Assembly (NCBI GenBank): GCA_965214725.1
Contig: OZ243973.1
Span: forward strand, 1,799,705 to 1,863,704
Source of the DNA: Dehalococcoidia bacterium
GTDB lineage: Bacteria; Chloroflexota; Dehalococcoidia; UBA6926
Reading direction: 5' to 3'
Length of the DNA stretch: 64,000 nucleotides
Notes under the pieces: model-generated
Seen by the model: the letters and a program-made list of their open reading frames with translations, nothing else
Told to the model about the DNA's origin: nothing
Databases searched by the model: none
Shown here: positions 6,151-27,334 of the stretch, one piece after another
Position numbering within the stretch: the first letter of the stretch is position 1
Layout: each line of letters begins with the position of its first letter
Position numbers and translations under genes: made by a program

Positions 6151-6179
6151 TGTGGCGGATAAGGGGGAGTTGGCAGGTC

Positions 6180-6227
6180 TGGTACCCCTGGGCGGACTGT
6201 ATTGCGAACCTTTGAGGTGAGGGTGGG
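6180..6227. repeat. 48-nt repeat resembling a tRNA 3' end. It forms a direct-repeat pair with 21130-21177 and is a candidate left att or boundary site of the island.
   Basis: 45 of 48 positions are identical to 21130-21177. The first 11 nt (tggtacccctg) plus the 6 nt of upstream flank are identical to the 3' end and flank of tRNA-Arg at 27254-27270. It retains a T-loop-like gttcgcaatcc on the minus strand. Confidence 0.6.
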
Positions 6228-6485
6228 GTTACCGGTGAGGACGCTCAAATGAGAATGTTGCTACTTGCCGATCCCCTGCTTGCGGACCCAGATGATGATC
6301 TTGGACCGATCGAGCGAGCATTCCAGCTCATCATGGATATGCTCCCCCATCCTCAGCAGGAAGAACTAGGCTGAGAAAGTGACAAAGCTCTTCGTCAGTC
6401 GTCCCGCCTTTGCTCCTCGTGCCCGGATAAACCAACTCTATCCGCCCAAGCTAGGTACTCATTGCAGATTGAGGTCAGGTCGCCG

Positions 6486-6514
6486 CTTGCTCTGACAATA
6501 TAGGTATGTATAAT
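6486..6514 (+). promoter_or_regulatory. Sigma70-like promoter. The -35 is TTGCTC (6486-6491), followed by a 17-nt spacer and an extended -10 TGTATAAT (6507-6514).
   Basis: A consensus -10 is rare in this GC-rich DNA. It sits 54 nt upstream of the ATG at 6568, which has a GGAG ribosome-binding site. Confidence 0.55.
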
Positions 6515-6524
6515 GCACTATAGC

Positions 6525-6537
6525 CTGACAATGTCAG
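6525..6537. promoter_or_regulatory. Perfect palindrome CTGACA-a-TGTCAG between the -10 and the RBS, a candidate operator. A related half-site CTGACAAT lies at 6492-6499.
   Basis: Seen directly in the sequence. The position is typical of a repressor operator. Confidence 0.35.
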
Positions 6538-6567
6538 ACCGAGAACCAGTGCAAGGAGAAACGCCCA

Positions 6568-7188
6568 ATGCCTGAGGGTGACCGATTCGACAAGCTGATT
6601 CGACGCGGCTGGGACGACGTCTTGGCTGGCATTGAAAGTGACGATGCAGCGCCGTATGAGATTGCGGCCCAATTGATCGTTCCCCTGACGCGAGACGTAA
6701 AGAATGGCGGCGGATTACCGGGCCTAGACAAGGTGGGCGGCATCGTAGCCGCGTGCGTGGGATCGGGCGGGATCGAGGGCGCCTTCAGTGCGCTGGATCG
6801 CGTCGTAATCGAGCATAATGGCCATCGTCACACTGTGGTGCTAGCTCGAGCTGCAAAGACTCTTCTGCTAACTCAGGAAATAGCTGTGACACTTAGCGAG
6901 CACGCGTTTGCCACTGCCAGACTCATCGAACAGACCTGTCATGACTTGGTAGACAACGTGTTCTTCGGCGTAGGACGATACCGATTGATCGAATCGGGTA
7001 GATTCTCGAGCGAAGGGGAAGCTCGAGAATTCGAGCGCCTCGTCCACGAAGCCCTGGCGCCCGCTATTCGAGGGATGGCGGTGCAGCTTATGGTCGACTC
7101 CACAGGCAAGGCAATCAAGGTGCCCAGGTCAAGAACACCCAAGCTCAGCACGCAAGACATCCTGAAGCAAGACATCAACCCAGTCTGA
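6568..7188 (+). CDS. 206-aa hypothetical protein, first gene of the QueC-like module.
   Basis: It has an RBS (aaggagaaacgcccATG) and is followed 12 nt later by the next CDS. I recognise no motif. Confidence 0.7.
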   Translation: MPEGDRFDKLIRRGWDDVLAGIESDDAAPYEIAAQLIVPLTRDVKNGGGLPGLDKVGGIVAACVGSGGIEGAFSALDRVVIEHNGHRHTVVLARAAKTLLLTQEIAVTLSEHAFATARLIEQTCHDLVDNVFFGVGRYRLIESGRFSSEGEAREFERLVHEALAPAIRGMAVQLMVDSTGKAIKVPRSRTPKLSTQDILKQDINPV

Positions 7189-7200
7189 GGAATCACGACG

Positions 7201-8553
7201 ATGACCTGCTACTTCGATTTCGCGCAAGAGTCGCCGGGAGCCATTGACGAGGCGCATTACCACCTTAGCAGCCGGCTTATTGAGGAGCCGTTCATGCAGC
7301 GCCTGACCCCTATACAGAGGGACGTATTGGACATCGCAATGGCCGCTTATACGGCAGACAGGCGCTCCCGCCGAGACCGCCGCAGGACGACTTCAACGGG
7401 ACAACGCGAGATCCACGTAAAGATGAAAGTACGAGAGCCGGATACTTGGAATAATACCGAAGTAACGATAGAGTTGCGCCAACTGTTCGAGTGGCTGAGC
7501 GGTGACCGCTGGATCATTGAACTCATCCCTGGCGAGCGCCTAAGGGCGGGAGACCCTCAGCAACACTACCTGTTTGCCGGACGGCCAAAAGCGCCTGTCG
7601 CTGTCTCACTATTCAGTGGCGGTTTGGACTCCTTGGCGGGGTCCGCAACGCTACTGGCAGGGAATGAATTTTGCTCCCATGTCCTCGTCTCAGCCTACAC
7701 AAACAGCCGCCTGAGGTCTCAGCAATCCCGACAATTTGGATTGATCAAGGAATCCCTGTGTGACGTGCCTGAGGAATACCGCACCGATTTGGAACACGTT
7801 GCTGTTCCAATGGGAATCAACAAGTATCAGGGGAAGGATCCCGAGAAGTCGCAAAGGATGCGCGCCTTAGTCTACCTGACGATCGGTATCGTAACGGCCA
7901 TCCAAGCAGGCTCAGACACGTTATATGTCCACGAGAATGGAGTTGGCGCACTCAACTTGCCGCTCAATGAGACTCAACTCGGTGTCGACAAATACCGAGG
8001 CGTCCATCCCCATTCGCTATTGATGGTACAGAAGCTCTATTCCAGAGTATTCGAGCAACAATTCCGCCTCAAAAATCTGTTCCAGTTCGCCACTAAGGCG
8101 GAGATGTGTACTGCGCTGCCGAGCGCCAGGCTGTTGAAGGCCGTACGAGAAAGTGTATCGTGCGACAAGTTTCCCCTTCGCATATCAGGGAAGCCCCAGT
8201 GCGGGGTGTGCACCTCCTGCATACTCCGGCGGCACGCTATTGAGTCTGCTGGACTCCAGGAGCATGACCCCGTATCGAGTTATCGGTACGACATTCTTGG
8301 CTCAAGAGACGGCGTCCCCGTAGATGATCGCTTTCCCATGCAAGTTATGCGAGGGCAGGCCAACCGCATTCGTGCGGCAATTGAGTCCGACGACGCTTGG
8401 GTGGAATTGGTGCGACTCTACCCCGACCTTTATGTCCACACGCAAGAAATCGCTGAGTTGAAGTGCATCTCAGTTGACTCCTCTCGGGAACAGACTCTCG
8501 ATCTGTATCGCCGATATTGTATTGAGTGGGACAACCTCACTCATACCCTCTAG
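7201..8553 (+). CDS. QueC-like PP-loop ATPase (7-cyano-7-deazaguanine synthase family) with about 130-aa N-terminal and about 100-aa C-terminal extensions.
   Basis: The PP-loop motif is VAVSLFSGGLDSLAGS at residues ~135-150. The QueC-type zinc motif is QCGVCTSCILRR (C-G-x-C-x-x-C-x-x-R). It has a gagg RBS. Confidence 0.8.
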   Translation: MTCYFDFAQESPGAIDEAHYHLSSRLIEEPFMQRLTPIQRDVLDIAMAAYTADRRSRRDRRRTTSTGQREIHVKMKVREPDTWNNTEVTIELRQLFEWLSGDRWIIELIPGERLRAGDPQQHYLFAGRPKAPVAVSLFSGGLDSLAGSATLLAGNEFCSHVLVSAYTNSRLRSQQSRQFGLIKESLCDVPEEYRTDLEHVAVPMGINKYQGKDPEKSQRMRALVYLTIGIVTAIQAGSDTLYVHENGVGALNLPLNETQLGVDKYRGVHPHSLLMVQKLYSRVFEQQFRLKNLFQFATKAEMCTALPSARLLKAVRESVSCDKFPLRISGKPQCGVCTSCILRRHAIESAGLQEHDPVSSYRYDILGSRDGVPVDDRFPMQVMRGQANRIRAAIESDDAWVELVRLYPDLYVHTQEIAELKCISVDSSREQTLDLYRRYCIEWDNLTHTL

Positions 8554-8576
8554 CGCCCCACCAGGAGGGACCGCCA

Positions 8577-9806
8577 ATGCAGAGAAGAAACGTGTTCAAC
8601 ACCTTGGATCCACGAATTATTGGCCGCCGTCTGCAAGAGGCGAGGAAGGCGCGCGGCCTTACCCAGGAGGAGGTTGCCACCGAACTGGGAACCGCGCGCA
8701 CGACTATAACTGCGATCGAGAAAGGAGAGCGGCGGGTTCAGCCCCAAGAACTGCTACGACTGTCTGAACTCTACGGCCACACTCTCGGGAATCTCATGAG
8801 AGAGCGAAAGCCGGCTGAGTCATTTGGAGTCCAATTGCGAGCCTTTTTCAAGGGAGTGGACTCACCAGTGGTCGCCCGTGACCTCCAAGAAGCCGTGAGC
8901 GAGTTTCAGGAGCTATGCGAGGACTATACGGCGCTCGAAGACTTGAGCGGGATTGAGCCCCGCCGAGACTACCCAATGGAACTCAGAGTGGGTCGATCAC
9001 GCCCGGAATTGGCGGCAGAGGAGGCTGCTGAGAGCGAACGCAACCGGCTCGGTCTTGGAGACGGCCCGCTCGATTCGCTGAGAGAGTTGCTTGAGAATGA
9101 TGTCGACCTGCGAATCTTCAGCATGCGAATGCCGTCACAAATTGCGGGAATGTTCGCCTACTCGGAGGAGTTGGGCGGGTGCATCGCCGTCAACAGCCGG
9201 CACCCTGAAGAGCGCCGTCGATGGTCAATGGCCCACGAATACGGGCATTTCTTGTCCGGGCGGTATCAAGCTGAGGTCAGCAATACTCTGCCTGCACGTA
9301 AGCCGCCGATGGAGAGATTCGCCGACACCTTTGCGCGCTTCTTCCTAATGCCTTCCGCCGGATTGCGTAGGCGATTCAACCAGGCCATTCGCGTCAGTGG
9401 AGGGCGCATTTCGGTTGCAGACTTGGTACGACTAGCCCACCACTACGCTGTGTCGGTGGAAGCAATGATACTGCGACTGGAGGAGCTACGGCTTATCTCC
9501 TTAGGAACGTGGCAACGACTCAAGGATCAGAGATTTAGAGTGAGGGAAGCGCAAGCGGAGCTTGGCCTCGAGCCGCTTTCTCAGCAAGGGAATGTGCTCC
9601 CTCGTCGGTACATGCTACTTGCTGTTCGGGCATTCGCTGACGGAAAGATCACCGAAGGTCAGTTGGCCCGCTACTTAAGGACGGATAGGGTGTCGGCGCG
9701 CGAAATTGCGGGGAGGCTATCTGAACAGGATAGCGTCGACGAACACGGCGATATCCAATCGTTCTCGCTAGATCTGTCATCGCCGGTGGTCATGCCCGGC
9801 CGATAA
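8577..9806 (+). CDS. XRE-family HTH regulator fused to an ImmA/IrrE-type zinc metallopeptidase.
   Basis: The N-terminus LTQEEVATELGTARTTITAIEKGERRVQPQELLRLSELYG is a Cro/C1 HTH. The HExxH motif is MAHEYGHFLSG. I place the start at the ATG at 8577 with an AGGAGG RBS; the ORF-track start at 8526 is probably upstream of the real start. Confidence 0.85.
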   Translation: MQRRNVFNTLDPRIIGRRLQEARKARGLTQEEVATELGTARTTITAIEKGERRVQPQELLRLSELYGHTLGNLMRERKPAESFGVQLRAFFKGVDSPVVARDLQEAVSEFQELCEDYTALEDLSGIEPRRDYPMELRVGRSRPELAAEEAAESERNRLGLGDGPLDSLRELLENDVDLRIFSMRMPSQIAGMFAYSEELGGCIAVNSRHPEERRRWSMAHEYGHFLSGRYQAEVSNTLPARKPPMERFADTFARFFLMPSAGLRRRFNQAIRVSGGRISVADLVRLAHHYAVSVEAMILRLEELRLISLGTWQRLKDQRFRVREAQAELGLEPLSQQGNVLPRRYMLLAVRAFADGKITEGQLARYLRTDRVSAREIAGRLSEQDSVDEHGDIQSFSLDLSSPVVMPGR

Positions 9807-9820
9807 GGGACGATGCAGAC

Positions 9821-10381
9821 ATGTTGGGCCATGCTCCTCCCACCCTCGTCGTCGACGCAAGTACACTGATCAACCTCTACGCGACCAGCCGGTTACGGGA
9901 GATCGCACTCGACTTGCCCCACACCATCTTTGTCTCGCGCTGTGTTTTGGAGAGAGAAAACCTATACGTCAGGGTTCAAGAAGCGGCTGGTACGATTTCG
10001 AATCGACACATCGAGTTGACCGCGCTAATCACTGATGGCCTTATTCAGCTTGTGGAAACGAGTGGTGAAGCGGAGGCGCAGCTCCTGATCGAACTAGCGA
10101 CTGAGTTGGGTGACGGCGAGGCGCAAACCGCAGCAATTGCCATTCATCGTGGCTACATAGTGGCCACAGACGACCGCAAGGCCAGAAGACTTCTAGCCGA
10201 GCACTGGCCGGGCGTGCGGGTTCTGACGACAACCGAAATCCTAAGAATCTGGTCCGAATCGAGCACGATAACGCCGCAAGAGCTGCGTGACGCATTCACA
10301 GCCATTCAGACAGGTGCCTGTTTCATCCCGCCGACAAACGATCCCGAGTACAACTGGTGGCAGAGCCTTATGCGAGAGTGA
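9821..10381 (+). CDS. PIN-like nuclease-fold protein, similar to DUF4411-type partners of ImmA/IrrE regulators.
   Basis: An N-terminal VVDASTLINL strand with an acidic residue and a downstream ATDD are consistent with a PIN fold. It is immediately downstream of the HTH-ImmA gene with a 14-nt gap. Confidence 0.6.
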   Translation: MLGHAPPTLVVDASTLINLYATSRLREIALDLPHTIFVSRCVLERENLYVRVQEAAGTISNRHIELTALITDGLIQLVETSGEAEAQLLIELATELGDGEAQTAAIAIHRGYIVATDDRKARRLLAEHWPGVRVLTTTEILRIWSESSTITPQELRDAFTAIQTGACFIPPTNDPEYNWWQSLMRE

Positions 10382-11040
10382 CTTCTCCCGTGGAAAGGCA
10401 TTCGGTTGTGGCCGTGCTAGAGTATGCCCAGGTTCGATACCGCAATTGAGATCAACAGCCCGGTGTAAAGCAAAGCGAGCAAGATCGGGGCCGACAATTC
10501 TAGGGGGCAGCTCTGTAACCTTGCCGTCTCCGGTGTTTATCCGTGCCCCGCGAGGTTGAGCAACCGAGATGCGTCAAATGCCGCAGGCTCGGGCGATTCC
10601 AATTCAGTTGCCATCTACAGTTGAACCAGTAAGCGTACCAGTCCGCGTCTTTTCTTCCGGCCCTGAAGGAACGGCTAGCCAAGTGGCAGGAAATCTGTAT
10701 CGACGGTTCAGGCCAAACACGCCAATACTGGAATTTGTTTGTCGATTCCAGTCCGTATCGTCTACGAGCAGGCTGCAATCAGAGCTACGCCACGCCCGGC
10801 CGGGGCCGCAAAGCGGCTTTTGGCGTATGTTTCGATTGGCCCGATCTCCTTAATGTTATTTCGCCGCTTGAATCAGTACCTGTCCAACTTGGCTAGCGCC
10901 GATGACTAGCACCATGTCGTCTAGCAGCATCATGCCCCCGAGGGGTGTGCTGCCCGATGCGGCAGCCTCAAGCACTTCTTGCCCGACATTCCAAGAAATG
11001 GTGACGGGGTGGACTTCAAAGGTCATTTCAGTGTCATCTG

Positions 11041-14000
11041 CTAGGATGGCCCCAACTTGCTTCCAGGTCTTTCAGTGGCAGGTGCCGGCTCGACGTAAGT
11101 TGCAAGAAAGTCCATCTCCAGGAGCCACCGGCGGAACGACTCGTTGTCACTGAACTGCTTGAACAACTCGGTGTGGTCGGCCAAGAGCTCGGTCATGGCC
11201 CGTCCCAAGGCCTTATCGTGCTCAATCCGTGCGTTCTGCCGGTCGGAGTTGGCCATTGCGTTCTGGTATGCCCTGTCGCCCGCTACCTTCGCGGGCAACT
11301 CCTCAGCGATCACCCTTTCGATCTTGTCCTGGTCCTTCCACTCGATGTTGCCAAACCGGTCATTGAACTCCCTGACGATATTCGAGAGTCGGTCCATCTC
11401 CGGTTCCGGCTTTTGTCCTCCGCCCTCGGTGGGGACGGGTTCGATCTCTGCGTCCTCGTCGGGTAGCTGGATGTCCTGCACAGCCTGCTTCTCAACCCGG
11501 TAGCTGTCCATGTCTATGGTTCCAAGAATCCCCTTGGAGAAGTCGTCCTCTACAGGAGCGGGCAGCTTGGGAACGAGGAAGGTCAGGAAGATGGAGAGCT
11601 TCTCCCATTCCGCGTAGGTGTAGGGCAGGATGGCCGCCAAGAACCCGTAGGACCGCAGGAACGCCTTCGCCTTGCCCTTGAAGTCCACCTGGCCGTCTTC
11701 GTCCAACTGCTCTCGGTAGACCGAGACGCAAGCGTCCAGGATAGGATCGAGCCGGTCGCGATCGTCTCCGGAAAGGTATCGCTCCACGAGCTTGTCAATC
11801 TGAGCCGGGCCGTAGACCTGATACCCGTCCAGAGCTGCCTTGAGGTCGTGAAGCCTGTCGGGGTCGGTCTCCTCCGCCAGAATCGTGGTCCGGTAGTAGG
11901 GGGTGAAGCCGGCCTGGATCGTGTCGGCGTCATTGGCGAAGTCCAGCACGAAGGCGTCGTGTTTCTTGGGATGCGCCCGGTTGAGACGGGAGAGCGTCTG
12001 CACTGCCTTCACTCCTGACAGCGGTTTGTCGACGTACATCGTGTGCAGCAGAGGTTCGTCGTAGCCGGTCTGGAACTTGTCGGCGCAGACCAAGAAGCGG
12101 TACGGGTCCTCCTGAATCTTGTCGGTGATCAGGTTGGACGAGAAACCGTTGAGGGACGCCTCGGTGACATGCGCGCCGCCGTACTCGTGCTCGCCGGAGA
12201 AGGCGGCGATGGCTTGGTAGGGACTCTTGCGTTCAGCCAGGTAGTCCCGGATTGCATAGAAGTAGGTGATGGCCCGCTGGACGCTGCTCGTCACCACCAT
12301 GGCCCGTGCCTGCCCGCCTATCTTCTGCAGGCCGGCCACTTGTTCGTGGAAATGGTCGACCATGATTTCTGCCTTCAGCCGAATGGCATGGTCGTTGTCC
12401 TCCACGTATCGGCGCAGCTTCTTGCCTGCTCGCTTAGTGTCGAATTCTGGGTCCCCCTCAACTGTCTTCACCAGTCGGTAGTAGCTGTTCACCGGCGCAT
12501 AGTCCTTCAGTACGTCGATGATGAACCGCTCTTGGATGGCCTGCTTCATTGTGTAGGAGTGGAATGGCGCGTGCCTCGTATTCCCGCCTTCCGAAACGGG
12601 CGTGCCGAATATCTCCAGGGTCTTGTTCTTGGGTGTGGCGGTGAAGGCGAAATAGCTGGCGTTGGCAAGGAGCTTCCGGGACTCCATCAGCCGATTGATC
12701 TTGTCCTCGGTGGTCTCGTCTTCCTCTTCGGCGCCCGCTTCTCCCAACGCCATGGACACCGACGCCGACGTCCGCCCTCCCTGACTCGAATGTGCCTCAT
12801 CAATGATGATGGCGAACTTGCGCCCGCGGTGCTCATTGCCTATGGCGTCCAGGATGAAGGGAAACTTCTGGACGGTGGTGATAACGATCCGCTTGCCTTC
12901 TTGGAGCAACCGCCGCAGGTTGCCGGAGGTTTCGGCATGGCCCACGATGGAGCCGACTTGGGCGAACTGCCTGATGGTGTCCCGTATCTGCCTGTCCAGC
13001 ACCTTGCGGTCCGTGACGACGACGGTGGTGTCGAACACTGCTGCGTCATCCCGCTCCAGCCCTATCAGCTGGTGGGCTAGCCATGCAATGGAATTGGACT
13101 TGCCGCTGCCCGCCGAGTGCTGGATCAGGTACTTGGAACCGGCTCCCTTAACAGACGCGTCAGCCAGTAGCTTCCGCACTACGTCCAGCTGGTGGTAGCG
13201 GGGCCATACTTGCTCCCGCCTCTTTCGGCCCGTCTTGTCGTCCTTGCCCTCCACGATCTGGGCATAGTTCTCGATGATGTCGGTCAGCCCATTGCGGGTG
13301 AGGACCTGCTTCCACAGGTAATCGGTCTTGAGGCCATTGGGGTTGGGCGGGTTGCCCGCGCCGTCATCCCATCCCTTGTTGAAGGGCAGGAACCAAGATG
13401 CCTTGCCACTGAGTTGCGTGCAGAACTGCACTTCGTGGTCGTCAACGGCAAAATGGGCGAGACATCTGCCCAGCTCGAAGAGCTTCTCCCGGGGATTGCG
13501 GTCTCGCTTATACTGTTCTACGGCGTCATCTACCGTCTGCTTGGTCAGGCTGTTCTTCAGCTCGAACGTTGCGACGGGCAGGCCGTTGATGAACAAGCAC
13601 AGGTCTAGGGCAAGCTGCGCGTTGTCGTTGCTGTACCGGAGCTGCTTGGTCACGCTAAAGCGGTTCTGCCCGTACAGGACGCCGGCTTTCTCATTCCCTG
13701 GCGACGGTGTGCCGTACATGAGGTTGATCTGGTGTGGGCCGTGCTTGATGCCGTTGCGGAGCACGTCAATGGTACCGCGACGGGTTATCTCTCCCTGCAG
13801 GCGGGCCAGGAATCTGCGCCTTGATGGGCTGTCCGTGCCCAAGTCCAGCGATTCGGCTGCTTTAAGTTGAGTATCGTGGAGGAAGTCCGAGAGTTGAGCG
13901 AGGTCCACGCAGTACTCCCTGTCGTAGTCTTGGGCGTCGCCGCTTATCCACCCTGCGCCATAGCTGGACGGCCGCTCGCGCACCACCCCGCCCTGCGGCG

Positions 14001-14073: not shown

Positions 14074-14087
14074 GCTATGCTCGCCTC

Positions 14088-15524: not shown

Positions 15525-15930
15525 ACTGCCAACCTCGCTTGTTGGCGAATTCTGCAAGCCGCTTCGCAGTATTCCTGACACTATGCTTGGCCAGATCCCC
15601 AAAGATGATTATGCAGTGTTGAGGAAATGGATCAGGATCACTTTTCACGCTCAACTGTTGCTCTCCGCATTCCAACACGCTGACCGCCATCACGCCCATA
15701 GACCCGTAGTTAAGGCGATCCACGTAGTGATCCCATGCATCCCTGGCCGTAATCTGGTCACCGTCGTACACCGAGAGACTTTGACGGTCTTTAGGGGTAG
15801 GAGTGAACGCCTGGGATGTAACGCGCCCATCCTGAGCAAAGTTAGGATGAATCTGGCGAAGCAGAAGTGTCTGGCTATTCACGTCACCTTGCTCTGCAAC
15901 AAGTGCAGCTCGCTGCCAAGCCATGCCCAA
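15508..15930 (-). CDS. Hypothetical 140-aa protein (gene C), embedded between hsdM and hsdS.
   Basis: An intact ORF on the same strand. It overlaps the end of gene B and the start of hsdS, which suggests translational coupling. I recognise no motif. Confidence 0.55.
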   Translation of the reverse strand: MGMAWQRAALVAEQGDVNSQTLLLRQIHPNFAQDGRVTSQAFTPTPKDRQSLSVYDGDQITARDAWDHYVDRLNYGSMGVMAVSVLECGEQQLSVKSDPDPFPQHCIIIFGDLAKHSVRNTAKRLAEFANKRGWQYGPVS

Positions 15931-19677: not shown

Positions 19678-19731
19678 TGACCTACATCCTTCCCACCTGT
19701 GGAACTCGTTGCGTTAGAACCCTTTAGCGGC

Positions 19732-20274
19732 CTACGCCGGTACTGCCACCTTCTCTTCCGAATGCCCGTTCTCCATTGCCACTGCCCATTCGAAGAGGGA
19801 GATGGACGGTTGGAGTTTGTGGGAGCGGCTCTTCTTCTTGTGGGCCGTCTCGGTCATGAACTCCGCCCAGGAGAAGAGCGCGCGTTGTGGCTCGTCAGTC
19901 GTGGGCTCCGCGCTGGTGGCGACCCGAAGAGAGCGCTTGGCTTCCTCCGTGGGCTGGATCTCCACGATGACGGGTGCAATCGGCTCGGTCACCTGCCATT
20001 CGTCGTCCACCAAGTAGGATTCAGACTCAGTCTCGGCGGTGCGGGCTTGGGCGAAGACAGCTTCGACGGTGTCCGCCGCGTCGTCATCGTCAGCGCCGTT
20101 GACGAGCTTGCGGGCGAGGGCCAGCATGAGGTCATCGCCATCGTCGCCGTAGGCGGCGAGGCCGTCCTCGGGGAGTTCGCCCTCAACCGCCAGCGACGAT
20201 TGGAGTTTCTTGGCGACCAGTTTGAGTGCGTCGGCTTGCAGGGTATTCCGGTAGGCCATGAAGATGACCTTCAC
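19732..20274 (-). CDS. Hypothetical acidic 180-aa protein between vapC and hsdM.
   Basis: It directly follows the vapC stop and lies 55 nt upstream of hsdM on the same strand. It has Asp/Glu-rich tracts. Confidence 0.45.
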   Translation of the reverse strand: MKVIFMAYRNTLQADALKLVAKKLQSSLAVEGELPEDGLAAYGDDGDDLMLALARKLVNGADDDDAADTVEAVFAQARTAETESESYLVDDEWQVTEPIAPVIVEIQPTEEAKRSLRVATSAEPTTDEPQRALFSWAEFMTETAHKKKSRSHKLQPSISLFEWAVAMENGHSEEKVAVPA

Positions 20275-20732
20275 GGGCCGGGTCTGGCCGATGCGCCCTC
20301 GTCAAACTCTCCAATCCACCGAACGTTGCCCCCGATCGTTTCCGCCGCTCGGAGGAATTTCTTGTCGGCAGTCCAGAGTTCGCAGTCCAAGGTCTCCGAC
20401 AGAGCAAGGTAGTGGGCGTCGTAAACAGCTCCTTGTTGGAGAACGCTTGCGAGCGTCAATGCCCTGGCGTGAAGCTCCGGGAATTCGTGAAGTTCGACTC
20501 CGACGGCCATCAGATCTTGGAGGAGACGTGTCGCCATTCCAACGCTGAGGTGCCCTCTCAATACGCGCTGGTGGAGCACGTTGGCAACCTCCGTGGGCAT
20601 CAGGTAGGGAGCCGCAAGCCGCGTTCCCTCACTGTCCAAGCGCCGCACCAAGGCAGTGGCCTTGTCAGAGTGCTCCTCTTCGATTAGCCACTTGACCGCC
20701 AAGCTGGCATCCACGACAGCGGAGCCGTTCAC
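20271..20732 (-). CDS. vapC: PIN-domain toxin VapC.
   Basis: The N-terminus AVVDASLAVKWLIEEEHS is the PIN strand-1 with an acidic residue. It has an ATGA overlap with the upstream antitoxin. Confidence 0.8.
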   Translation of the reverse strand: MNGSAVVDASLAVKWLIEEEHSDKATALVRRLDSEGTRLAAPYLMPTEVANVLHQRVLRGHLSVGMATRLLQDLMAVGVELHEFPELHARALTLASVLQQGAVYDAHYLALSETLDCELWTADKKFLRAAETIGGNVRWIGEFDEGASARPGP

Positions 20733-21022
20733 AGCGTATTCTTCGTCTCTCGCGCCTCCCGAAGCAGCTCAACCGAGTCTTCGGGCAGGGGCTGACCGCC
20801 GAAGAGTTCGCCTCGATGGCCCACGAGCCGCTCGAATGCCTCACGATTGAAGTGTTGCTCTGGAATGCCGTCAACTGCGTCCCTGGCCAACTCCTTGTTT
20901 ATGGCCGTTTGGCAGTACTGGCGCATGGTGACCCCTTTGAGCGCTGCAACGACCTTCAAGCGTCGCTGTACAGAAGCGTCTATATCCAGCGTGAGCCTCT
21001 TCCTCTCGGCGTCCATATACAC
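20729..21022 (-). CDS. vapB: Ribbon-helix-helix antitoxin (VapB/CopG-like).
   Basis: RLTLDIDASVQRRLKVVAALKGVTMRQY is the RHH signature. An AAGGAG RBS precedes it. Confidence 0.75.
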   Translation of the reverse strand: MYMDAERKRLTLDIDASVQRRLKVVAALKGVTMRQYCQTAINKELARDAVDGIPEQHFNREAFERLVGHRGELFGGQPLPEDSVELLREARETKNTL

Positions 21023-21129
21023 AATGCTCCTTGCCAGAATCCTATTGGAACAAGATTACTGCAAATGCAGAAACCCTTCAATGCGCGTGCGGTGAACCCG
21101 GCAACAAAAGGGGGGCACACTCGGCCAGA

Positions 21130-21177
21130 TGGTACCCCTGGGCGGACTGGATTGCGAACTTTTGAGGTGAGAGTGGA
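21130..21177. repeat. Second copy of the tRNA-3'-like 48-nt direct repeat, an internal att-like junction between the two islets.
   Basis: See 6180-6227. Confidence 0.6.
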
Positions 21178-21264
21178 GCAGACGGTGGTTGCCTTCTGGC
21201 CACTATGAACAGTTCTAGATGCTAGGTCATAGGCATCACGCAGTGTCTTGGTCGGCTAGCATCC

Positions 21265-21294
21265 TTGACACAAGAACGTTCGTTCTTTTACTCT
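21265..21294 (+). promoter_or_regulatory. Promoter with -35 TTGACA (21265-21270), an 18-nt spacer and -10 TACTCT (21289-21294). A LexA/Cheo-type SOS box AGAACGTTCGTTCT (21273-21286) is embedded in it.
   Basis: GAAC-N4-GTTC with palindromic flanks sits between the -35 and the -10, the classic repression geometry. It lies upstream of imuB. Confidence 0.6.
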
Positions 21295-21328
21295 GCCCTC
21301 TACCAATCTAGTGACGGTGGGGGAAACG

Positions 21329-22774
21329 ATGCGGGTTGCCTGTGTGCTCATTACGCATCTGAGGGCAAAGATCGAGATGCGGCGACGGCCGGATGTGGCA
21401 AACCGCCCCGCCGTGATCGTCGCGCGTGGACAGAAGAAGCCCGTTGTTGTCGACCACTCGCCCGCCACCTCTCGTATCAGAATCGGTATGACGCCGGAAC
21501 AGGCACTCTCGCAGCAGGCAGATACGCTGATGCTTGAGGCGGATGAGTCGACATATCGCAGCGTGTTTCGGCAGACGCTCACCGCTCTGCAAGAGGTCAG
21601 TGACCAGGTTGAGGACGCAGAGCTCGGGACGGCCTACGTGCGGGTGGCTGGGTTGGACGAGATGCACGGCGGCGCGGAGGCCCTTGTTGCCGCGCTGCAT
21701 GGCGCGATTCCGCGCTATCTGCAGGCGCGGATTGGCATCGGCGAGGGAAAGTTTGCCGCTTTCGCTGCGGCCGTTGCAAGCCCACCACTCGGCGTTGCGA
21801 CCGTTCCGCCGAATGCAGCTGAGTTCCTATCCCCGCGTTCCATTGATCTTCTGCCGATAAAGCAAGAAATGCGCCTCGCTCTCCGCCGTTTCGGACTCCG
21901 CACCCTGGGTGATGCGGCGGCGCTGTCTGAAGCCACGCTCATAGACCAGTTCGGCGCGGACGGGAGCGCGGCGTGGCGGCTCTCGCACGGCATCGACGAC
22001 AGCCCTCTCATTCCGCTCGCCTACGAGGAATCTATCTCGGAGCGCATGTCACTGCCGTTCGCGTCAAGCTCCCTGCAGCTTGTCACCATCACCGTGGACA
22101 CCCTCCTTAAACGCGCGTACGCCATGCCGCGAATGCGTGGCCGCTACGCCGGCGCCGTCACAATCCATTGCCTGCTGCTCAACGCGCCCGCGTGGGAGCG
22201 AACCTTGAGATTCAAGCGACCCGCCGGTTCATGGGAGCGTGCATCTGAGATTATCGCACCACAGATGGAGCAGGACCATCCGCTCGCGCCTGTCGAGGAA
22301 ATCAGCGTGACATTGAGCGAATTGAGCGGTGACGCAGGGATGCAGATGGGCCTATTGCGTAATCAACGCCGCGACCGGCACGAGCGGCTGCTGGAGGCAG
22401 ACAGGGGACTCCGCGCCCATCTCAAAGGGCGCAGCGCTCTCTACCAGGTCTTGGATGTCGCGCCGTGGCATCCCGCGCCGGAGATGCGCGCCCTCCGCGT
22501 CCCCATTGATGCCTCCACAGGCGATGACGCGACACCGCTGGCGCTGCCGACAGCGTTGGCCGTCCAAGAAGGTCCCAGCCGTCAGCCGTTGGCTGTGCAA
22601 CTCGGCAAGAAATGGCACAAGATCGCGCAGATCGAGGATTGGTGGAGCTTCGATCTCTGGTGGCTGCCACAGCCGCTTACGCGGACCTATTACCGTGTGA
22701 GTCGAGAGGACGGTCCGGAGCTCATCCTCTTCAGAGACCGGCATGACGATTGCTGGTATCAGCATGTGCCCTGA
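21329..22774 (+). CDS. imuB: ImuB-like Y-family polymerase paralog, the mutasome accessory subunit.
   Basis: It has a UmuC/DinB-like fold (ACVLITHL...VIVA...VVVDHSPATSRIRIGMT) but no obvious catalytic acidic triad. It directly precedes dnaE2. The start is at 21329, an ATG with a GGTGGGGGA RBS. The ORF-track start at 21311 is a GTG. Confidence 0.75.
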   Translation: MRVACVLITHLRAKIEMRRRPDVANRPAVIVARGQKKPVVVDHSPATSRIRIGMTPEQALSQQADTLMLEADESTYRSVFRQTLTALQEVSDQVEDAELGTAYVRVAGLDEMHGGAEALVAALHGAIPRYLQARIGIGEGKFAAFAAAVASPPLGVATVPPNAAEFLSPRSIDLLPIKQEMRLALRRFGLRTLGDAAALSEATLIDQFGADGSAAWRLSHGIDDSPLIPLAYEESISERMSLPFASSSLQLVTITVDTLLKRAYAMPRMRGRYAGAVTIHCLLLNAPAWERTLRFKRPAGSWERASEIIAPQMEQDHPLAPVEEISVTLSELSGDAGMQMGLLRNQRRDRHERLLEADRGLRAHLKGRSALYQVLDVAPWHPAPEMRALRVPIDASTGDDATPLALPTALAVQEGPSRQPLAVQLGKKWHKIAQIEDWWSFDLWWLPQPLTRTYYRVSREDGPELILFRDRHDDCWYQHVP

Positions 22775-22777
22775 GGT

Positions 22778-25700
22778 ATGGATGGCACAATGACGTCCCC
22801 ATATGTTGAGTTGCACGCCAAGAGCTTCTACTCCTTCGGAGAGGGAGCGTCCCACGTCCATGAATTGCTGGCGCAGGCAAAGGAATACGGCTATGAGGCG
22901 CTCGCCCTGACGGACACGAACCTGTGCGGCGCGCTGGAATTCGCACGGCTGGCCAAGAGCCTCGGTATCAAGCCGATTACGGGCGGCGAATTGACCATGC
23001 TGGACGGCTCCCGCATCACTCTGCTGGCCAAGAGCAGACAGGGCTACGCCAACATCTCACGCCTGTTTACGCTCGCCAACTCCATCGACCGCCGAGAGCC
23101 GCGCCTTGACCCGATCCATCTGCCCGACCATGCGGAAGGCGTCGTGCTCATCACGGGTGGGCGTGACGGCCAACTCTCCCGCCTTGCAATGAGCGGCCGG
23201 CATGACGACGCTCAAAGACTCCTGCGTGACTACATGGGCTGGTTTGGGCCGGACTCTGTATTTGTGGAGTTGCAGCAGAATCATATTCGCGGAGACACGG
23301 GGCGGAATCGTGAACTTGCCCGCCTGGCCAGGGACGCAGGCGTCGGCCTCGTTCCCACCAATGATGTCCACTATCATGCGCCGGAGCGGTACCAGCTCCA
23401 GCACGCGCTCGTCGCCGCCAAGCACAACGCCACTATCGATCAGGCACTCCCGCACATCCGCCCCAATCATCACTTCCACCTAAAGCCCGCTGAGGCGATG
23501 GCACGGCTCTTTGAGGGGGAATACCCGGGGATCATCGATGCTACACGCCGCATCGCAGAGCAATGCGATTTCAATCTGGCTGACAGCATCAACTACGAGC
23601 TGCCGGAGCCGGATGTGCCGACGGGCTACACAACGGATAGCTACCTGCAACGACTCTGTTTTGAGGCGGCATTGCGCCGATATGGCGGCATCTCGGAACG
23701 CGTCCGTGAACGACTTGATGAGGAGTTCAGACTCGTCAAGCGGCACGGTATTGCCGGATTCCTTCTGCTGTATCGGGATATCGTACTTTTGGCACAGCAG
23801 ATCATGGAGGAGCGCGGGCTGGCACCGCCCGAGATCCCGTTGGAAGAGAGGCCGCCAGGCAGGGGACGTGGGTCATCCGTCGCGCTGTTGGTCGGTTACC
23901 TCATCGGCATCAGCCACATCGACCCGATCAAGTGGGATCTGACGCTGGAGCGGTTCATCTCCGAGGACATGTCCATGCTACCGGACATTGACCTTGATTT
24001 TCCGCGCGGACTTCGGGATGAGCTCATCAGCCGCATTCACCAACGGTACGGCCCGGACTATGCGGCACTGACGGGCGCGATCAGCACCTACTCCGTCAAG
24101 GGCATCATCCAAGACATCGGTAAGGCGCTTGGCCTCCCCAAAGAGGACCTCACGCTCCTCTCCAAGCAGCTTCACTCCCACCACGCGGTTGACCTCAAAG
24201 AGGAGATGCTGCGCCTGCCCGCATACAAGGACCGTGTTGAGTCGCAAGGTTGGCGTGAATTGCTTGAACTTGCACCACATCTCATGGACGCCCCCCGCAG
24301 CCTTGGCCAGCACGTCGGCGGCATGATCCTCAGCAGCTCGCCCATCTCGGAGATGGCACCCATCCGTGAGGGGGCGATCGCAGGGCGCTACATTATCGAC
24401 TGGAACAAGGACACCATCGCCGATGCCAACGTGGCCAAGATTGATCTGCTTTCTTTGCCGGTACTGGACCAGCTGGAACAGTCACTCGATCTCATCGAAC
24501 AGCGGACAGGCAGTCGCCCCGACCTCAGCCGTGTGGAGCCGGACGACGACAACGTCTACGACATGATCAACGAGGGGCGTGCTAAGGGTGTCTTCCTGCT
24601 GCAATCACCGGCCCAGCTCAAGATGGCGCAACGACTCCGCTCCCGGAACCTACTTGATCTCGCATACCAGGTCGCCCTTATCCGCCCCAGTGTGGGTGTG
24701 CAGGGGAGTTCCGTCAGCCAATTCGTGGAACGCTATCGGCATGGCGTGGAGTGGGACTACGACCACCCATTAGAAAGGCGTGCTTTGGAGCGTGGCTACG
24801 GCATCATCATCTGGCAGGAGCAGGTGGTACAGCTGCTGTCAGATGTTGCGGGGGTGACAACGGCAGAAGCGGACGAGATACGCCGCGCCTTTGGTCGCCC
24901 CAATAACGCCGCCCTGCTTGAAATGCACCGGCAGCGATTCTTGGAGGGCGCTCAGCAAAACGGCGTGCCCGATGAAACGGCTCACAAGATCTTCGGCAAG
25001 GTCAACGGCCACTACATGTTCCCTGAGAGCCACAGCCATGCCTTCGCCATCACTGCCTACCAAGCCGCTTGGCTCAAATACTATTATCCGATGGAGTTCT
25101 TTGTGACCCTCATCAACAACCAGCCGATGGGTTTCTACCCGATGGAGACGCTCAAACAGGACGCGCGGCACTGCGGCGTCCCGTTCCTCAATCCTTGCGT
25201 CAATAGGAGTCAGGCGCTGTGCGTGCCGGAAGATGGTGCAGTGCGTCTTGGACTCGGCCTCGTTAGGGATGTTGGCGAGGCGGCGGCGCGAGCCATCGTG
25301 GAAGAACGAGAGGCGCGGGGCAGATATGGCAGCCCCGCCGACCTCGTGAGCCGAACAGGAATCACGCCCGGGGCTGCGACGTCACTCGTCATGGCGGGCG
25401 CGTTTGATGATCTTGCGCCCAACCGCAGGCAATCCCTGTGGGACGTTGGCCTTGCCAATCGCCCACTCAGGAGCGGTCAACGTACTCTCCCCACGTCTAA
25501 TGACCACGCCACACCTCAGTTCAAGGACTTCTCGGACTACGAGAAGATGGTGAGTGAGTATCGCGTCATGGGCACCTACCCGCGCGGCCACGTCATGGAA
25601 TTCGTACGCCCCACCCTGAGCGACCGTGTTCTGCGCACGTCCGAGGTGTACGGCATGCCTGAAAACCGAGAGGTGATTGTTGCCGGTTGGCCGATTGCAC

Positions 25701-25939
25701 GGCAGCATCCTCGCGGGCGAGACGGCACCGTCTTCGTCACCATTGAGGACGAGTGCGGCGACGTGCAGCTCATCCTCTGGAAGGACGTGTTCGCACGGTC
25801 GCGCCGCGCGTTGCGCAACCGCGTCATCATGGTGCGCGGCATCATCTCTCGCTGGGATGGCACAACGAATATCATTGCCTCCGAGATTCGTGCCATCAAC
25901 ACCGATGTCCCTATGCCGAGTGCCCACGATTGGCATTGA
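22778..25939 (+). CDS. dnaE2: Error-prone DNA polymerase III alpha paralog.
   Basis: 1053 aa. An N-terminal PHP domain (YVELHAKSFYSFGEGASHVHELL) and a Pol III alpha core are present, with no tau or beta-binding tail. It sits in the imuB-dnaE2 arrangement. Confidence 0.88.
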   Translation: MDGTMTSPYVELHAKSFYSFGEGASHVHELLAQAKEYGYEALALTDTNLCGALEFARLAKSLGIKPITGGELTMLDGSRITLLAKSRQGYANISRLFTLANSIDRREPRLDPIHLPDHAEGVVLITGGRDGQLSRLAMSGRHDDAQRLLRDYMGWFGPDSVFVELQQNHIRGDTGRNRELARLARDAGVGLVPTNDVHYHAPERYQLQHALVAAKHNATIDQALPHIRPNHHFHLKPAEAMARLFEGEYPGIIDATRRIAEQCDFNLADSINYELPEPDVPTGYTTDSYLQRLCFEAALRRYGGISERVRERLDEEFRLVKRHGIAGFLLLYRDIVLLAQQIMEERGLAPPEIPLEERPPGRGRGSSVALLVGYLIGISHIDPIKWDLTLERFISEDMSMLPDIDLDFPRGLRDELISRIHQRYGPDYAALTGAISTYSVKGIIQDIGKALGLPKEDLTLLSKQLHSHHAVDLKEEMLRLPAYKDRVESQGWRELLELAPHLMDAPRSLGQHVGGMILSSSPISEMAPIREGAIAGRYIIDWNKDTIADANVAKIDLLSLPVLDQLEQSLDLIEQRTGSRPDLSRVEPDDDNVYDMINEGRAKGVFLLQSPAQLKMAQRLRSRNLLDLAYQVALIRPSVGVQGSSVSQFVERYRHGVEWDYDHPLERRALERGYGIIIWQEQVVQLLSDVAGVTTAEADEIRRAFGRPNNAALLEMHRQRFLEGAQQNGVPDETAHKIFGKVNGHYMFPESHSHAFAITAYQAAWLKYYYPMEFFVTLINNQPMGFYPMETLKQDARHCGVPFLNPCVNRSQALCVPEDGAVRLGLGLVRDVGEAAARAIVEEREARGRYGSPADLVSRTGITPGAATSLVMAGAFDDLAPNRRQSLWDVGLANRPLRSGQRTLPTSNDHATPQFKDFSDYEKMVSEYRVMGTYPRGHVMEFVRPTLSDRVLRTSEVYGMPENREVIVAGWPIARQHPRGRDGTVFVTIEDECGDVQLILWKDVFARSRRALRNRVIMVRGIISRWDGTTNIIASEIRAINTDVPMPSAHDWH

Positions 25940-25999
25940 GCCGCGGTAGACTGTCTCAACGAGAGGCCGGAAGAATGCCATGATGGCGGGGGCAGCACA

Positions 26000-26668
26000 A
26001 TGTGCGGACGATACAGCCTGATCAGCGACCTGACTGCCTTACAGTCGCGATTTGACTTCGAGAATCCCGTCAACGACCATGCGCCCCGCTTCAACATTGC
26101 GCCGACGCAGAGCGTCCTCGCGGTGCGTTGGGAGGACGGGCATAACGTAGCGGAACACATGCGATGGGGGCTGATACCCTCGTGGGCGAAGGATATGTCG
26201 ATCGGCAACCGTGCCATCAACGCCCGAGCAGAGACCCTGGCGGAGAGACCCATGTTCCGCGCAGCGCTGCGCCGGCGCCGCTGTCTCATCCTCGCCGATG
26301 GATTCTATGAGTGGACGGGTACAGGCAAGGCGAGACAGCCCATGCGTATTCTGTTGACGACGGGCGAGCCATTCGCGTTTGCGGGTCTATGGGAGACTTG
26401 GACTAAACCAGAGGGCGAGATGGTCAACTCCTGTACGATCATCACCACAACACCGAACGATGTGATGCGCCCTATCCATGATCGGATGCCCGTTATCCTG
26501 CCACAGGAACACGAAGTCGCTTGGTTAAACCCCAAGAACAATGATTCAGCCGCAGTGCGTGAAATGCTGGTCCCGTATCCGGCGGACACGATGCACGCAT
26601 ACCGCGTGTCGACTCTCGTCAACTCGCCCGCCAATGACACGCCGGACGTGGTAATCAGGTCTGTTTAG
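26000..26668 (+). CDS. yedK: SOS-response-associated peptidase (SRAP/YedK/HMCES family).
   Basis: The N-terminus MCGRYSL carries the catalytic Cys2. Conserved WGL and the later motifs are present. Confidence 0.85.
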   Translation: MCGRYSLISDLTALQSRFDFENPVNDHAPRFNIAPTQSVLAVRWEDGHNVAEHMRWGLIPSWAKDMSIGNRAINARAETLAERPMFRAALRRRRCLILADGFYEWTGTGKARQPMRILLTTGEPFAFAGLWETWTKPEGEMVNSCTIITTTPNDVMRPIHDRMPVILPQEHEVAWLNPKNNDSAAVREMLVPYPADTMHAYRVSTLVNSPANDTPDVVIRSV

Positions 26669-26696
26669 GCGCTTCCAACCGCCTTGACGCTGACCT

Positions 26697-26725
26697 ACAC
26701 CATACGTACAAATGTTTGTTACGTA
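26697..26725. repeat. Inverted repeat catacgtacaaa-tg-tttgttacgtatg. It is a candidate recombinase site or a terminator.
   Basis: Arms of about 12 bp, AT-rich against a GC-rich background. It lies between the yedK stop and the recombinase remnant. Confidence 0.35.
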
Positions 26726-26776
26726 TGTGAGCCATGTTCTACACCTTGCGGACCGATACCAGAATAGGGATGCACA

Positions 26777-27257
26777 ATGACAGAAACTCATACAGCCTCC
26801 AAAGTGGCGCTCTTGCCCGTGTTTCAAGCGAGAGGCAGGCGTTGATCTCTCCGTAGCGGCCAGCTGCGGGCGCTCAGAGATTACGCGTCAAAGAACGACT
26901 ACATCGTCGCACGTGAGTATATCGACGAGGCCGAAAGTGGCCGTACTTCCGAGCGTCCCGAGTTCCGGTGGATGATTGACGATGCCACCGGGCCGGATGC
27001 CCCATTCAAGGAGATTCTCGTCTGGAAATTCAGCAGATTCACCCGCAAGCGGGAGCATGCTGTCGCCTTCAAGTCGATGCTCCGGCGGGCGGGGCATCAG
27101 GGTGTTCTCAATCACGGAGCATGCTGATGACTCACCGATGGGCAAACTCATGGAGGCCATCATTTCCTACACGGTTCCAATGCCGGAAGATAACCCCATC
27201 GGCAGTGTGAGGGTCGGCACAATCGACTTCGAGGCGAAATTTCGCAATACAGACAGG
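26777..27257 (+). pseudogene. Decayed serine recombinase (resolvase/invertase catalytic domain).
   Basis: It reads MTETHTASKVALLPVFQARGRR*SLRSGQLRALRDYASKNDYIVAREYIDEAESGRTSERPEF...ILVWKFSRFTRK, compared with the canonical VAIYARVSTDEQ..SLEAQ..LREYA...G..IV.EY.D.G.SG..RP.L. The catalytic YARVS motif is mutated and there is an in-frame TGA at 26843. A frameshift near 27090-27125 leads into ...SITEHADDSPMGKLMEAIISYTV. The ORF runs into the tRNA. Confidence 0.55.
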
Positions 27258-27259
27258 TC

Positions 27260-27334
27260 TGGTACCCCTGCCGGGACTCGAACCCGGGCCACCAGCTCCG
27301 GAGGCTGGTGCTCTATCCACTGAGCTACAGGGGC
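27260..27334 (-). tRNA. tRNA-Arg (anticodon CCG) with an encoded CCA.
   Basis: The minus-strand sequence is GCCCCTGTAGCTCAGTGGATAGAGCACCAGCCTCCGGAGCTGGTGGCCCGGGTTCGAGTCCCGGCAGGGGTACCA. It has a D-loop with AGCTCAGTGGATAGAGC, an anticodon loop CTCCGGA and a T-arm with GGTTCGAGTCC. Confidence 0.9.

Follow-up and report, generated by a model that had tools for sequence, protein, structure and literature searches.

Tandem SOS-mutagenesis and defence islands behind a tRNA-Arg gene in a Chloroflexota genome, with borders of serine-recombinase type

Which kind of recombinase placed two blocks of genes, one after the other, behind a single tRNA-Arg gene? The locus that raises this question lies in a window of 64,000 nucleotides (the whole stretch of DNA that was analysed) from a Dehalococcoidia bacterium (assembly GCA_965214725.1, contig OZ243973.1, positions 1,799,705 to 1,863,704). 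Island B, next to the tRNA gene, carries genes for SOS mutagenesis, and island A, beyond it, carries genes for anti-phage defence. Our analysis confirms that the two are stacked in tandem behind the tRNA gene of this Chloroflexota genome, as two discrete segments downstream of tRNA-Arg with attachment-type repeats as their borders. This is the layout that a first-pass annotation, made from the sequence alone, had proposed. That annotation had taken the arrangement for the classic signature of serial site-specific integrations at one tRNA; the mechanism is here assigned to the serine-integrase type and not to the classic one of tyrosine integrases at tRNA genes (tDNA). We consider it probable that island B is an element of a large serine recombinase (LSR) that entered at the tRNA 3' end and whose recombinase is now dead, and that island A is a recombinase-less cassette at the outer site of B. 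To the right of the tRNA gene runs the core chromosome, with genes for a CPA2 antiporter, glycyl-tRNA synthetase (GlyRS), SbcD, cytochrome oxidase, UvrB and FtsK. The coordinates of all features are collected in Table 1.

Attachment sites and the recombinase remnant beside tRNA-Arg

The borders of the islands are marked by a direct repeat. A repeat search reproduced the identity of 45/48 that had been reported for 6180–6227 and 21130–21177, as the first 48 nt of a 58-nt repeat (6180–6237 and 21130–21187, 86% identity) in which a 20-nt block is perfectly shared by both copies. A 30-nt consensus of the repeat matches these two places only in the window, with 0 matches expected in shuffles, and exact-pattern scans of genome, metagenome and viral collections returned none. 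The first 11 nt of the repeat, TGGTACCCCTG, are the complement of the tRNA 3' end including its CCA. Positions 6174–6198 agree with 27254–27278 at 22 of 25 places, including 17 exact bases (CAGGTC and TGGTACCCCTG, which correspond to the last 11 nt of the tRNA and 6 nt of its flank). The first-pass annotation had extended this 17-nt match to both copies. It is borne out for the distal copy, whereas the middle copy shares the 11 nt only and reads GCCAGA in place of CAGGTC. A T-loop-like motif, GTTCGCAAT(A/C)C, is indeed present on the complementary strand of both copies, as had been noticed, but it belongs to the outer arm of an inverted repeat whose partner stands inverted beside the tRNA. Neither ARAGORN nor Rfam detects a tRNA fragment within the repeats, and both report one single tRNA in the window.

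The inverted partner is a 12-mer, TTCGCAATACAG, at 27241–27252, which lies 7 nt from the end of the tRNA and beneath the 3' end of an LSR pseudogene. Its reverse complement is found at 6197–6208 (exact) and at 21147–21158 (one mismatch), 6 nt from the 11-nt core. These three matches, inverted beside the tRNA and direct in the two repeats, compare with 0.19 expected in the window. When the tRNA side is joined to the repeat across the shared core, the result is a site of 48 nt, TTCGCAATACAG-ACAGGTCTGGTACCCCTGGGCGGA-CTGTATTGCGAAC, whose 12-nt inverted arms match perfectly around a spacer of 24 nt. With its centre marked, this reconstructed attP reads TTCGCAATACAG-ACAGGTCTGGTA on the left and CCCCTGGGCGGA-CTGTATTGCGAAC on the right, and its spacer includes the last 11 nt of tRNA-Arg(CCG) (27260–27270), which thus fall within the recombination site.

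The attP sites of LSRs of the phiC31, Bxb1 and A118/LI type are about 48–50 bp long, with inverted half-sites around a central crossover. In phages and integrative and conjugative elements, the integrase gene lies beside attP and integration leaves the hybrid sites attL and attR. Known serine integrases mostly target protein-coding genes. The site described here resembles these systems in its length, its inverted half-sites, its attL/attR hybrids and the integrase gene that adjoins attP. It differs from them in that the integrase ORF spans attP, so that its last ~20 codons are replaced on integration.

An intact site of the same design, TTCGCAATACAG-N24-CTGTATTGCGAA, lies at the 3' end of a homologous LSR gene on an unrelated contig (L081, 11575–11622). 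The left 25 nt of this site are those of window 27241–27265 (25/25), and a further 16 nt (CGGACTGTATTGCGAAC) are those of the P arm in the window. As the reconstruction was made before the L081 site was known, this site is an independent confirmation of it. The architecture of the P and P' arms, together with the intact L081 site, shows the repeats to be predicted attR-type sites, that is, the P arms of the attP of a CcrB-like LSR, and not decayed pieces of tRNA. The view of the repeats as relics of a parental tRNA is therefore abandoned: beyond the 11–17 nt that they share with the gene, their sequence is that of the P arm. By the same comparison of arms, island B is shown to be bounded by a putative attL (tRNA body, P' arm and end of the LSR gene) and by the attR-type site at 21130, and the P and P' arms stand in opposite orientation exactly at the ends of this 6.1-kb segment.

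We infer the crossover point from the symmetry of the site alone. The centre of the spacer falls within the 17-nt block shared with the tRNA. The hexamer GGTTCG lies about 6 bp nearer to the presumed crossover in the tRNA, where it is the real T-loop, than in the P arm. Between attB and attP of serine integrases, the motif bound by the zinc ribbon is offset by about 5 bp, and the offset of GGTTCG may be of this kind.

A scan for the intact attP pattern gave 0 matches in viral contigs and a single one in metagenomes. The latter is a 15-nt palindrome on an AT-rich contig (L087, 8616–8669; GAGTTCGCAGTACAG-N24-CTGTATTGCGAACTC) that has the same arms and spacing. Judged by ORF lengths only, no ORF of LSR size lies beside it. 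We treated it as unrelated; it could be a chance occurrence or a distant att site.

The gene that ends against the tRNA is a frameshifted and dead serine recombinase, as the first-pass annotation had recognised. Six-frame translation of 26640–27340 shows an N-terminal catalytic remnant that runs from 26777 to about 27164 with at least three frameshifts, followed by an internal deletion of ~1.08 kb that joins the N-terminus to the last ~35 codons (~27165–27262), which span attL. By tblastx, window 26855–27164 corresponds to nt 103–411 of the L081 LSR gene and window 27153–27266 to nt 1487–1600. As both gene ends are kept and ~1.08 kb between them is missing, the gene in the window is an internally deleted LSR gene. 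At the DNA level, the window aligns with the end of the L081 LSR gene with a score of 93. The L081 gene is full-length, 77% identical and frameshifted in its assembly; stitched across the frameshifts, its product has the domains Resolvase, Recombinase and Zn_ribbon_recom. Among curated families (NCBIfam), CcrB comes nearest with 105 bits, where the cut-off is 900, and the L081 LSR is not scored as CcrA, CcrB or CcrC. Directly upstream of the gene (L081, 1–9900) lie VirB4/TraG-like, coupling-protein-like and relaxase-like genes, and L081 may be a conjugative or mobilisable element in its unintegrated form.

The LSR ORF crosses its own attP. In the attP form, it would end ~20 codons into the P arm (...DRSGTPGRTVLRTFEV...; compared over window 27165–27323 and L081 11480–11690), and in the integrated state its tail consists of tRNA-antisense codons. 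This means that integration alters the C-terminal tail of the LSR. The best public homologues of the remnant are 70–88% identical to it. Viral LSR relatives are only 36–48% identical, which is too distant for a comparison of att sites.

Among the best 120 of 1135 homologues of the remnant, about 30 are ORFs of exactly 157 aa. Those that we inspected are cut after a conserved ...DEFYSENL, where a convergent gene for an LSR of 537–555 aa abuts and overlaps them (L083, 10001–12000; L089, 10001–12012; L088, 608–3490), and a small ribbon-helix-helix gene often lies upstream. It looks as if one LSR element specifically targets, for its insertion, the stretch that encodes the catalytic domain in another LSR family. 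We considered whether the tails of these 157-aa homologues are tRNA-encoded and rejected this, as the convergent gene for a 537-aa LSR overlaps this tail with its 3' end in both L083 and L089, where no tRNA is found.

Occurrence of the islands in close strains and relatives

The locus was compared with three close strains that co-occur in one single sample. One of them (L082) was reached via a recombinase homologue (P0010) and two (L090 and L091) via members of the CPA2 protein cluster. From 21130 rightwards, through island B, the tRNA and the core, these strains are 97.8–98.4% identical to the window, and they are collinear with its left flank up to ~6150 at 92–96% identity. The whole of 6228–21129 is absent from all three, with a single copy of the repeat at the junction, and collinearity resumes exactly at window 21130 (at 4354 in L082 and, reverse-complemented, at 3731 in L090 and L091). 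Island A is a clean presence/absence polymorphism in what is effectively one species, as it is present in one of four strains that are ~98% identical. Island B, with imuB, dnaE2, SRAP and the LSR remnant, occurs in all four. The LSR gene of L082 has the same deletion as that of the window, and L090 and L091 most probably share it, as their alignment with the window across this region is collinear and shows very few gaps. The first-pass annotation had held both islands to be fixed. The recombinase next to the tRNA is dead, as it stated, but fixation does not apply to island A.

The same tRNA follows the gene of the CPA2 antiporter in all three strains and in three genus-level relatives (L084, L085 and L086), whose CPA2 proteins are 79–90% identical. 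These relatives retain the synteny of CPA2, tRNA-Arg and the GlyRS side. No imuB, dnaE2, SRAP or LSR gene was found downstream of the tRNA in any of them, and the genes that are found there differ and are unrelated. As these genomes have the conserved tRNA without island B, B too is an insertion here, on a longer time scale. The syntenic locus thus exists without A in close strains and without B in genus-level relatives, as the first-pass reading of two islands implied, and the region behind this tRNA-Arg is a hotspot. No genome of the same species was found to be without B. Among GTDB representative genomes, a search based on GlyRS synteny was uninformative, as the nearest relative is 76% identical and does not keep the tRNA synteny. 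In L084, which has no island, CTGTATTGCGAA is found behind tRNA-Arg (11481–11502) and lies, here too, 12 nt from the presumed crossover; this 12-mer may be an attL-like scar or a native motif.

The att sites themselves vary between the four strains. The attL spacer (window 27253–27262, L082 10479–10488 and the equivalent positions in L090 and L091) has two alleles: ACAGGTCTGG in the window and L091, where the CCA of the tRNA is encoded, and GCAGGGAAAG in L082 and L090, where it is not. The left flank of attR also has two alleles, one of which contains a 9-nt duplication of GTACCCCTG. All four combinations of spacer and flank alleles are found among the four strains, which suggests that recombination has taken place repeatedly, at these sites or between strains. 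As L090 and L091 show, the variable positions of the repeat are polymorphic among the single-copy strains, and the exchange point of island A can therefore not be mapped.

Gene content of the islands and their flank

The gene content assigned by the first-pass annotation, an SOS mutasome in the proximal island and defence in the distal one, was upheld by Pfam and PADLOC, with an imuB-like gene, dnaE2 and SRAP in the former and defence genes in the latter. In island B, the start of the imuB-like gene is called at window 21329 in the close relatives (481 aa in L082, L090 and L091). No imuA-like ORF was seen between the middle repeat and imuB, and SRAP and the tRNA have no gene between them other than the LSR remnant. 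The pattern AGAAC-N4-GTTCT, a candidate LexA box, occurs once in the 64 kb, with 0.01 occurrences expected.

Table 1. Features of the tRNA-Arg locus, in window coordinates.
Feature	Position	Strand	Basis or content
Distal repeat, outermost attR-type site	6174–6237	+	CAGGTC, TGGTACCCCTG, GGCGGA, P arm CTGTATTGCGAA (6197–6208), conserved tail
Island A	6228–21129	.	14.9 kb; Pfam, PADLOC; GC 0.579 vs core 0.605
Hypothetical (island A)	6568–7188	+	
QatC-like	7201–8553	+	PADLOC E = 9e-48
HTH + M78, RmrA/CapP-like	8526–9806	+	
PIN-like	9821–10381	+	
HsdR	11041–14073	-	Pfam HSDR_N/ResIII/T1R_D3
HsdS	14088–15602	-	Pfam Methylase_S
PDC-M32A-like	15879–16679	-	
Hypothetical (island A)	16676–17344	-	
HsdM	17515–19677	-	Pfam N6_Mtase/HsdM_N
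Hypothetical (island A)	19732–20274	-	
PIN	20271–20732	-	Toxin-antitoxin pair with ParD-like
ParD-like	20729–21022	-	
Middle repeat, outer attR-type site of island B	21130–21187	+	TGGTACCCCTG, GGCGGA, P arm CTGGATTGCGAA (21147–21158), conserved tail
LexA-box-like palindrome AGAACGTTCGTTCT	21273–21286	+	25 nt upstream of imuB; conserved in L082
imuB-like gene (Y-family fold)	21311–22774	+	Pfam IMS E = 1.7e-11
DnaE2-type error-prone polymerase alpha-subunit gene	22778–25939	+	Pfam PHP, DNA_pol3_alpha, finger, HHH_6, OB
SRAP (SOS-response-associated peptidase) gene	26000–26668	+	Pfam SRAP E = 9e-79
LSR pseudogene	26777–27262	+	Six-frame translation; Pfam Resolvase E = 2e-22; tblastx vs L081
attL	27241–27270	+	P' arm TTCGCAATACAG (27241–27252), inner half-site ACAGGTC (27253–27259), tRNA 3' end TGGTACCCCTG (27260–27270)
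tRNA-Arg(CCG), integration target	27260–27334	-	ARAGORN; Rfam tRNA 71.3 bits

Island A contains a complete type I restriction-modification (R-M) system, with HsdR, HsdM and HsdS together. No QatA, QatB or QatD was found near the QatC-like gene, whose neighbours match RmrA/CapP-like HTH-M78 models, PIN-like models or nothing. As only QatC matched, these genes do not qualify as a QatABCD system, and 6568–10381 may be an undescribed defence module that contains QatC. No recombinase was found in island A, and no tyrosine integrase (Phage_integrase) was found in the sizeable ORFs of 487–27323. A search for a P' arm or an LSR remnant at the right end of A gave nothing above shuffled controls. As A has none of these of its own, it resembles a cassette with an attR-type site at either end. 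Composition, which had been put forward as a further check, marks A as foreign only weakly.

Homologues of the island A HsdR that are 85–91% identical occur in very many genomes of varied size. When these were used to look for an A-like island elsewhere, the best was only 91% identical and lay in a different, LSR-rich island. In L088, the type I R-M system again lies within an island rich in large serine recombinases and with a relaxase. This suggests LSR-mobilised elements as the vehicles of the type I R-M system.

To the left of the islands, 487–5592 holds two convergent genes for large proteins of surface type, one of 947 aa (a Calx-beta protein) and one of 597 aa. The two genes share a 354-nt inverted repeat (2460–2813 and 3827–4180, 85%), and the gene for the 947-aa protein contains 42-nt Pro/Thr-rich tandem repeats (2769–2978). 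This flank is more diverged between the strains (92–96%) than the core is (98%). A hairpin like a repetitive extragenic palindrome (REP), CCCGATGGATAYCCGCTTTCRCGGGTATGAGGGGA, is found at the ends of two genes (3486–3534 and 6095–6143), and a G-rich array of the GGGTATGAGGGGA type (6140–6173) lies just left of the distal att site, with a length that varies between strains and is greater in L082.

Proposed history and relation to known islands

In the history that we favour, island B would have been inserted when an LSR element recombined with the tRNA-Arg 3' end, at or close to the middle of the spacer. Before its decay, B would have been ~7.2 kb long and would have consisted of the LSR gene and the imuB-dnaE2-SRAP cassette preceded by the LexA box. 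An internal deletion (~1.1 kb) and frameshifts would have destroyed the LSR gene after integration and, with the recombinase dead, B is unable to move by itself. Island A would have been inserted at the outer att site of B or excised from it. The likeliest agent would be a related LSR acting in trans, as Ccr does with tandem SCC-like defence cassettes (SCC, staphylococcal cassette chromosome), and homologous exchange between the repeats would be an alternative. Three histories of A are thus possible: insertion into the attR of B by an LSR in trans, an older island that was lost in three strains, or homologous recombination between the repeats. The serial integration proposed by the first-pass annotation is borne out for B only, as the right end of A has neither a P' arm nor a recombinase remnant.

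Several observations weigh against this history. Island B has the GC and GC3 of the core, so that composition gives no independent sign of a foreign origin for B. The right end of A is without P' arm and LSR remnant, so that A departs from the standard LSR element, and a recombination of two attR-type sites is not what would be expected of a canonical serine integrase. The two alleles of the attL spacer are left unexplained by a single ancestral integration. The L081 site differs from the reconstructed attP at 4 of the 7 positions just right of the centre, which makes it the site of a relative and a different attP. In their left halves, both attR-type sites are similar to the inner half-site of the P' side, as would be expected only if the native flank had been so already; L086, whose native sequence behind the tRNA (TACCAGCCCCGA) agrees with the inner half-site at 9 of 12 positions (by eye), supports this, and L084 and L085 do not. 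Recombination itself, a circular junction or an allele with attB only in the same species was not observed.

As an alternative, A and B together would be ancestral, with A the older and outer island, and three strains would have lost A when the 48–58-nt repeats recombined homologously or slipped, so that the polymorphism of A would involve no site-specific step. The repeats are direct and contain the perfect 20-nt block, the empty sites hold exactly one copy, and A has neither a recombinase nor a P' arm of its own, all of which fits a loss. Newcomers also normally enter at the regenerated target and push older islands outward, as in the logic of SCC and of the ssrA genomic islands (ssrA-GIs) of Dehalococcoides (PMC3146451). 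However, with A in one of four strains, this history needs three losses, or one loss that then spread, and if A had come first, the junction between A and B should hold the P' arm of A and a recombinase remnant, both of which are absent. The strain-polymorphic variants of the repeat give no mappable exchange point for either order. We regard a loss of A as possible, though not as the probable course. A different doubt concerns B: only the recombinase remnant would be foreign, imuB-dnaE2-SRAP would be old chromosomal DNA, and the P arm upstream of imuB would stem from an unrelated earlier event. The core-like GC and GC3 and the presence of B in all four strains of the species agree with this, and imuB-dnaE2 cassettes are often chromosomal. 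The correctly oriented P and P' arms exactly at both ends of the 6.1-kb segment argue against it, as do the genus-level relatives that conserve the synteny on the other side of the tRNA and are without the whole segment. This makes an old chromosomal origin of B improbable.

Even less can be said for two readings in which no serine recombinase shaped the borders. If these were islands of a tyrosine integrase, the repeats would be displaced and decayed 3' fragments of tRNA-Arg and the serine remnant would be a passenger. The layout of a tRNA with direct repeats that open with its last 11 nt is what such islands look like, but no tyrosine integrase domain is encoded in the sizeable ORFs of 1–27 kb, the repeats are unlike the tRNA past 11–17 nt, and ARAGORN and Rfam see no fragment. 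That part of the repeat which is not tRNA, joined with the sequence on the tRNA side, also makes up the intact site found behind a homologous LSR gene, whose 3' end overlaps that att site, and this brings the tyrosine-integrase explanation close to refuted. The least probable explanation is that the repeats are dispersed elements, such as miniature inverted-repeat transposable elements or REPs, or the shared promoter or operator of two plus-strand operons, with a coincidental likeness to the tRNA. Both copies do stand upstream of plus-strand gene clusters (starts at 6568 and 21311), and the REP-like hairpin, a different sequence, is repeated nearby. Against a dispersed element, which the first-pass annotation had itself named as the reading that would overturn it, there are two copies of the repeat in 64 kb, one per locus in the relatives and none in the scans of public collections. 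Around the middle copy, neither a promoter-like nor a terminator-like site was found, and the inverted partner at the tRNA and the intact L081 site would be left unexplained.

Beyond the locus itself, a more far-reaching proposal can be made, which taken as a whole we consider unlikely. Soil Chloroflexota would harbour a widespread family of CcrB-like LSRs specialised on tRNA 3' ends, with an attP that mimics the acceptor end and carries GGTTCG at an offset of ~6 bp, and with a zinc ribbon that reads the T-loop as the attB motif. The swap of the C-terminal tail on integration and excision could act as a built-in switch of directionality or expression, and the family would also move defence cassettes that have no recombinase from strain to strain via attR-type sites.

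The closest analogues of the locus appear to be the ssrA-GIs, followed by SCC arrays. In Dehalococcoides, tandem islands at the 3' end of the tmRNA gene are driven by an LSR, the serine recombinase DsiB (McMurdie et al. 2011, PMC3146451). Their borders consist of the ssrA 3' end as a direct repeat, with a conserved adjacent motif that is not part of ssrA, the gene of the CcrB-like LSR adjoins the RNA gene and reads towards it, and for those islands that have no integration module it was proposed that they are mobilised in cis or in trans, or fixed (PMC3146451). The present locus is similar in its host phylum, Chloroflexota, in the tandem islands behind one small-RNA gene, in border repeats made of the 3' end of the gene and an adjacent, non-matching conserved motif, in the LSR gene that lies beside the RNA gene and reads towards it, and in islands without an integration module. 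Unlike the ssrA-GIs, it has tRNA-Arg(CCG) as its target, with no tmRNA in the window, and 11–17 nt rather than 20 bp are shared with the target. The integration module of the ssrA-GIs has six genes (DsiB, DsiA, RecF-like, ParB-like, Mom-like and others), whereas only an LSR remnant is found here, without DsiA, ParB, Mom or tRNA-Gly-like integration-module genes. The cargo is SOS mutagenesis and defence here and reductive dehalogenases there. CcrB is the nearest named relative of both DsiB (PMC3146451) and the L081 LSR.

In staphylococci, SCC-like defence cassettes that lack a recombinase and stand in tandem are mobilised by Ccr recombinases (Hossain et al. 2024, PMC11470126). Likenesses to these arrays are the LSR agents, with CcrB as the nearest curated family of the L081 homologue, the use of a conserved housekeeping gene's 3' end for integration, the short direct repeats that part the cassettes, and the recombinase-less, defence-enriched cassettes, which in SCC are moved by the recombinases of a neighbour. 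The target is rlmH in staphylococci and a tRNA here, the match to CcrB reaches 105 of 900 bits, and mobilisation of A in trans is putative here, where the resident recombinase is dead. As target, integration module and CcrB score all fail, the locus lies outside both families; by analogy, it would work like them while belonging to neither. Islander-type tDNA islands also run from a tRNA gene at one end to a direct repeat of the gene's 3' end at the other. They differ from the present locus, which has no tyrosine integrase, a repeat that is mostly non-tRNA with an inverted partner, and a recombinase of the serine family.

A standard resource paper knew of no case of a serine-family integrase at a tRNA gene (PMC4383910), and our literature search, which was not exhaustive, found no later paper on one. 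The locus is thus a clear case, at the level of sequence, of a serine-family integrase with a tRNA gene as its target, in an enzyme family that rarely uses tRNA genes. It extends the mechanism of the Dehalococcoides tmRNA islands to tRNA genes and to another lineage of Chloroflexota. The sole cargo of the element at the tRNA is an SOS-type module, imuB-dnaE2-SRAP with a LexA-type box, which offers one concrete route by which such modules may pass between genomes. Candidate integration tools are the attP/attB pair as reconstructed and the intact homologues of the recombinase, which are abundant. Island A, with its presence in one of four strains, illustrates the natural turnover of defence genes at a hotspot that is defined by a recombinase.

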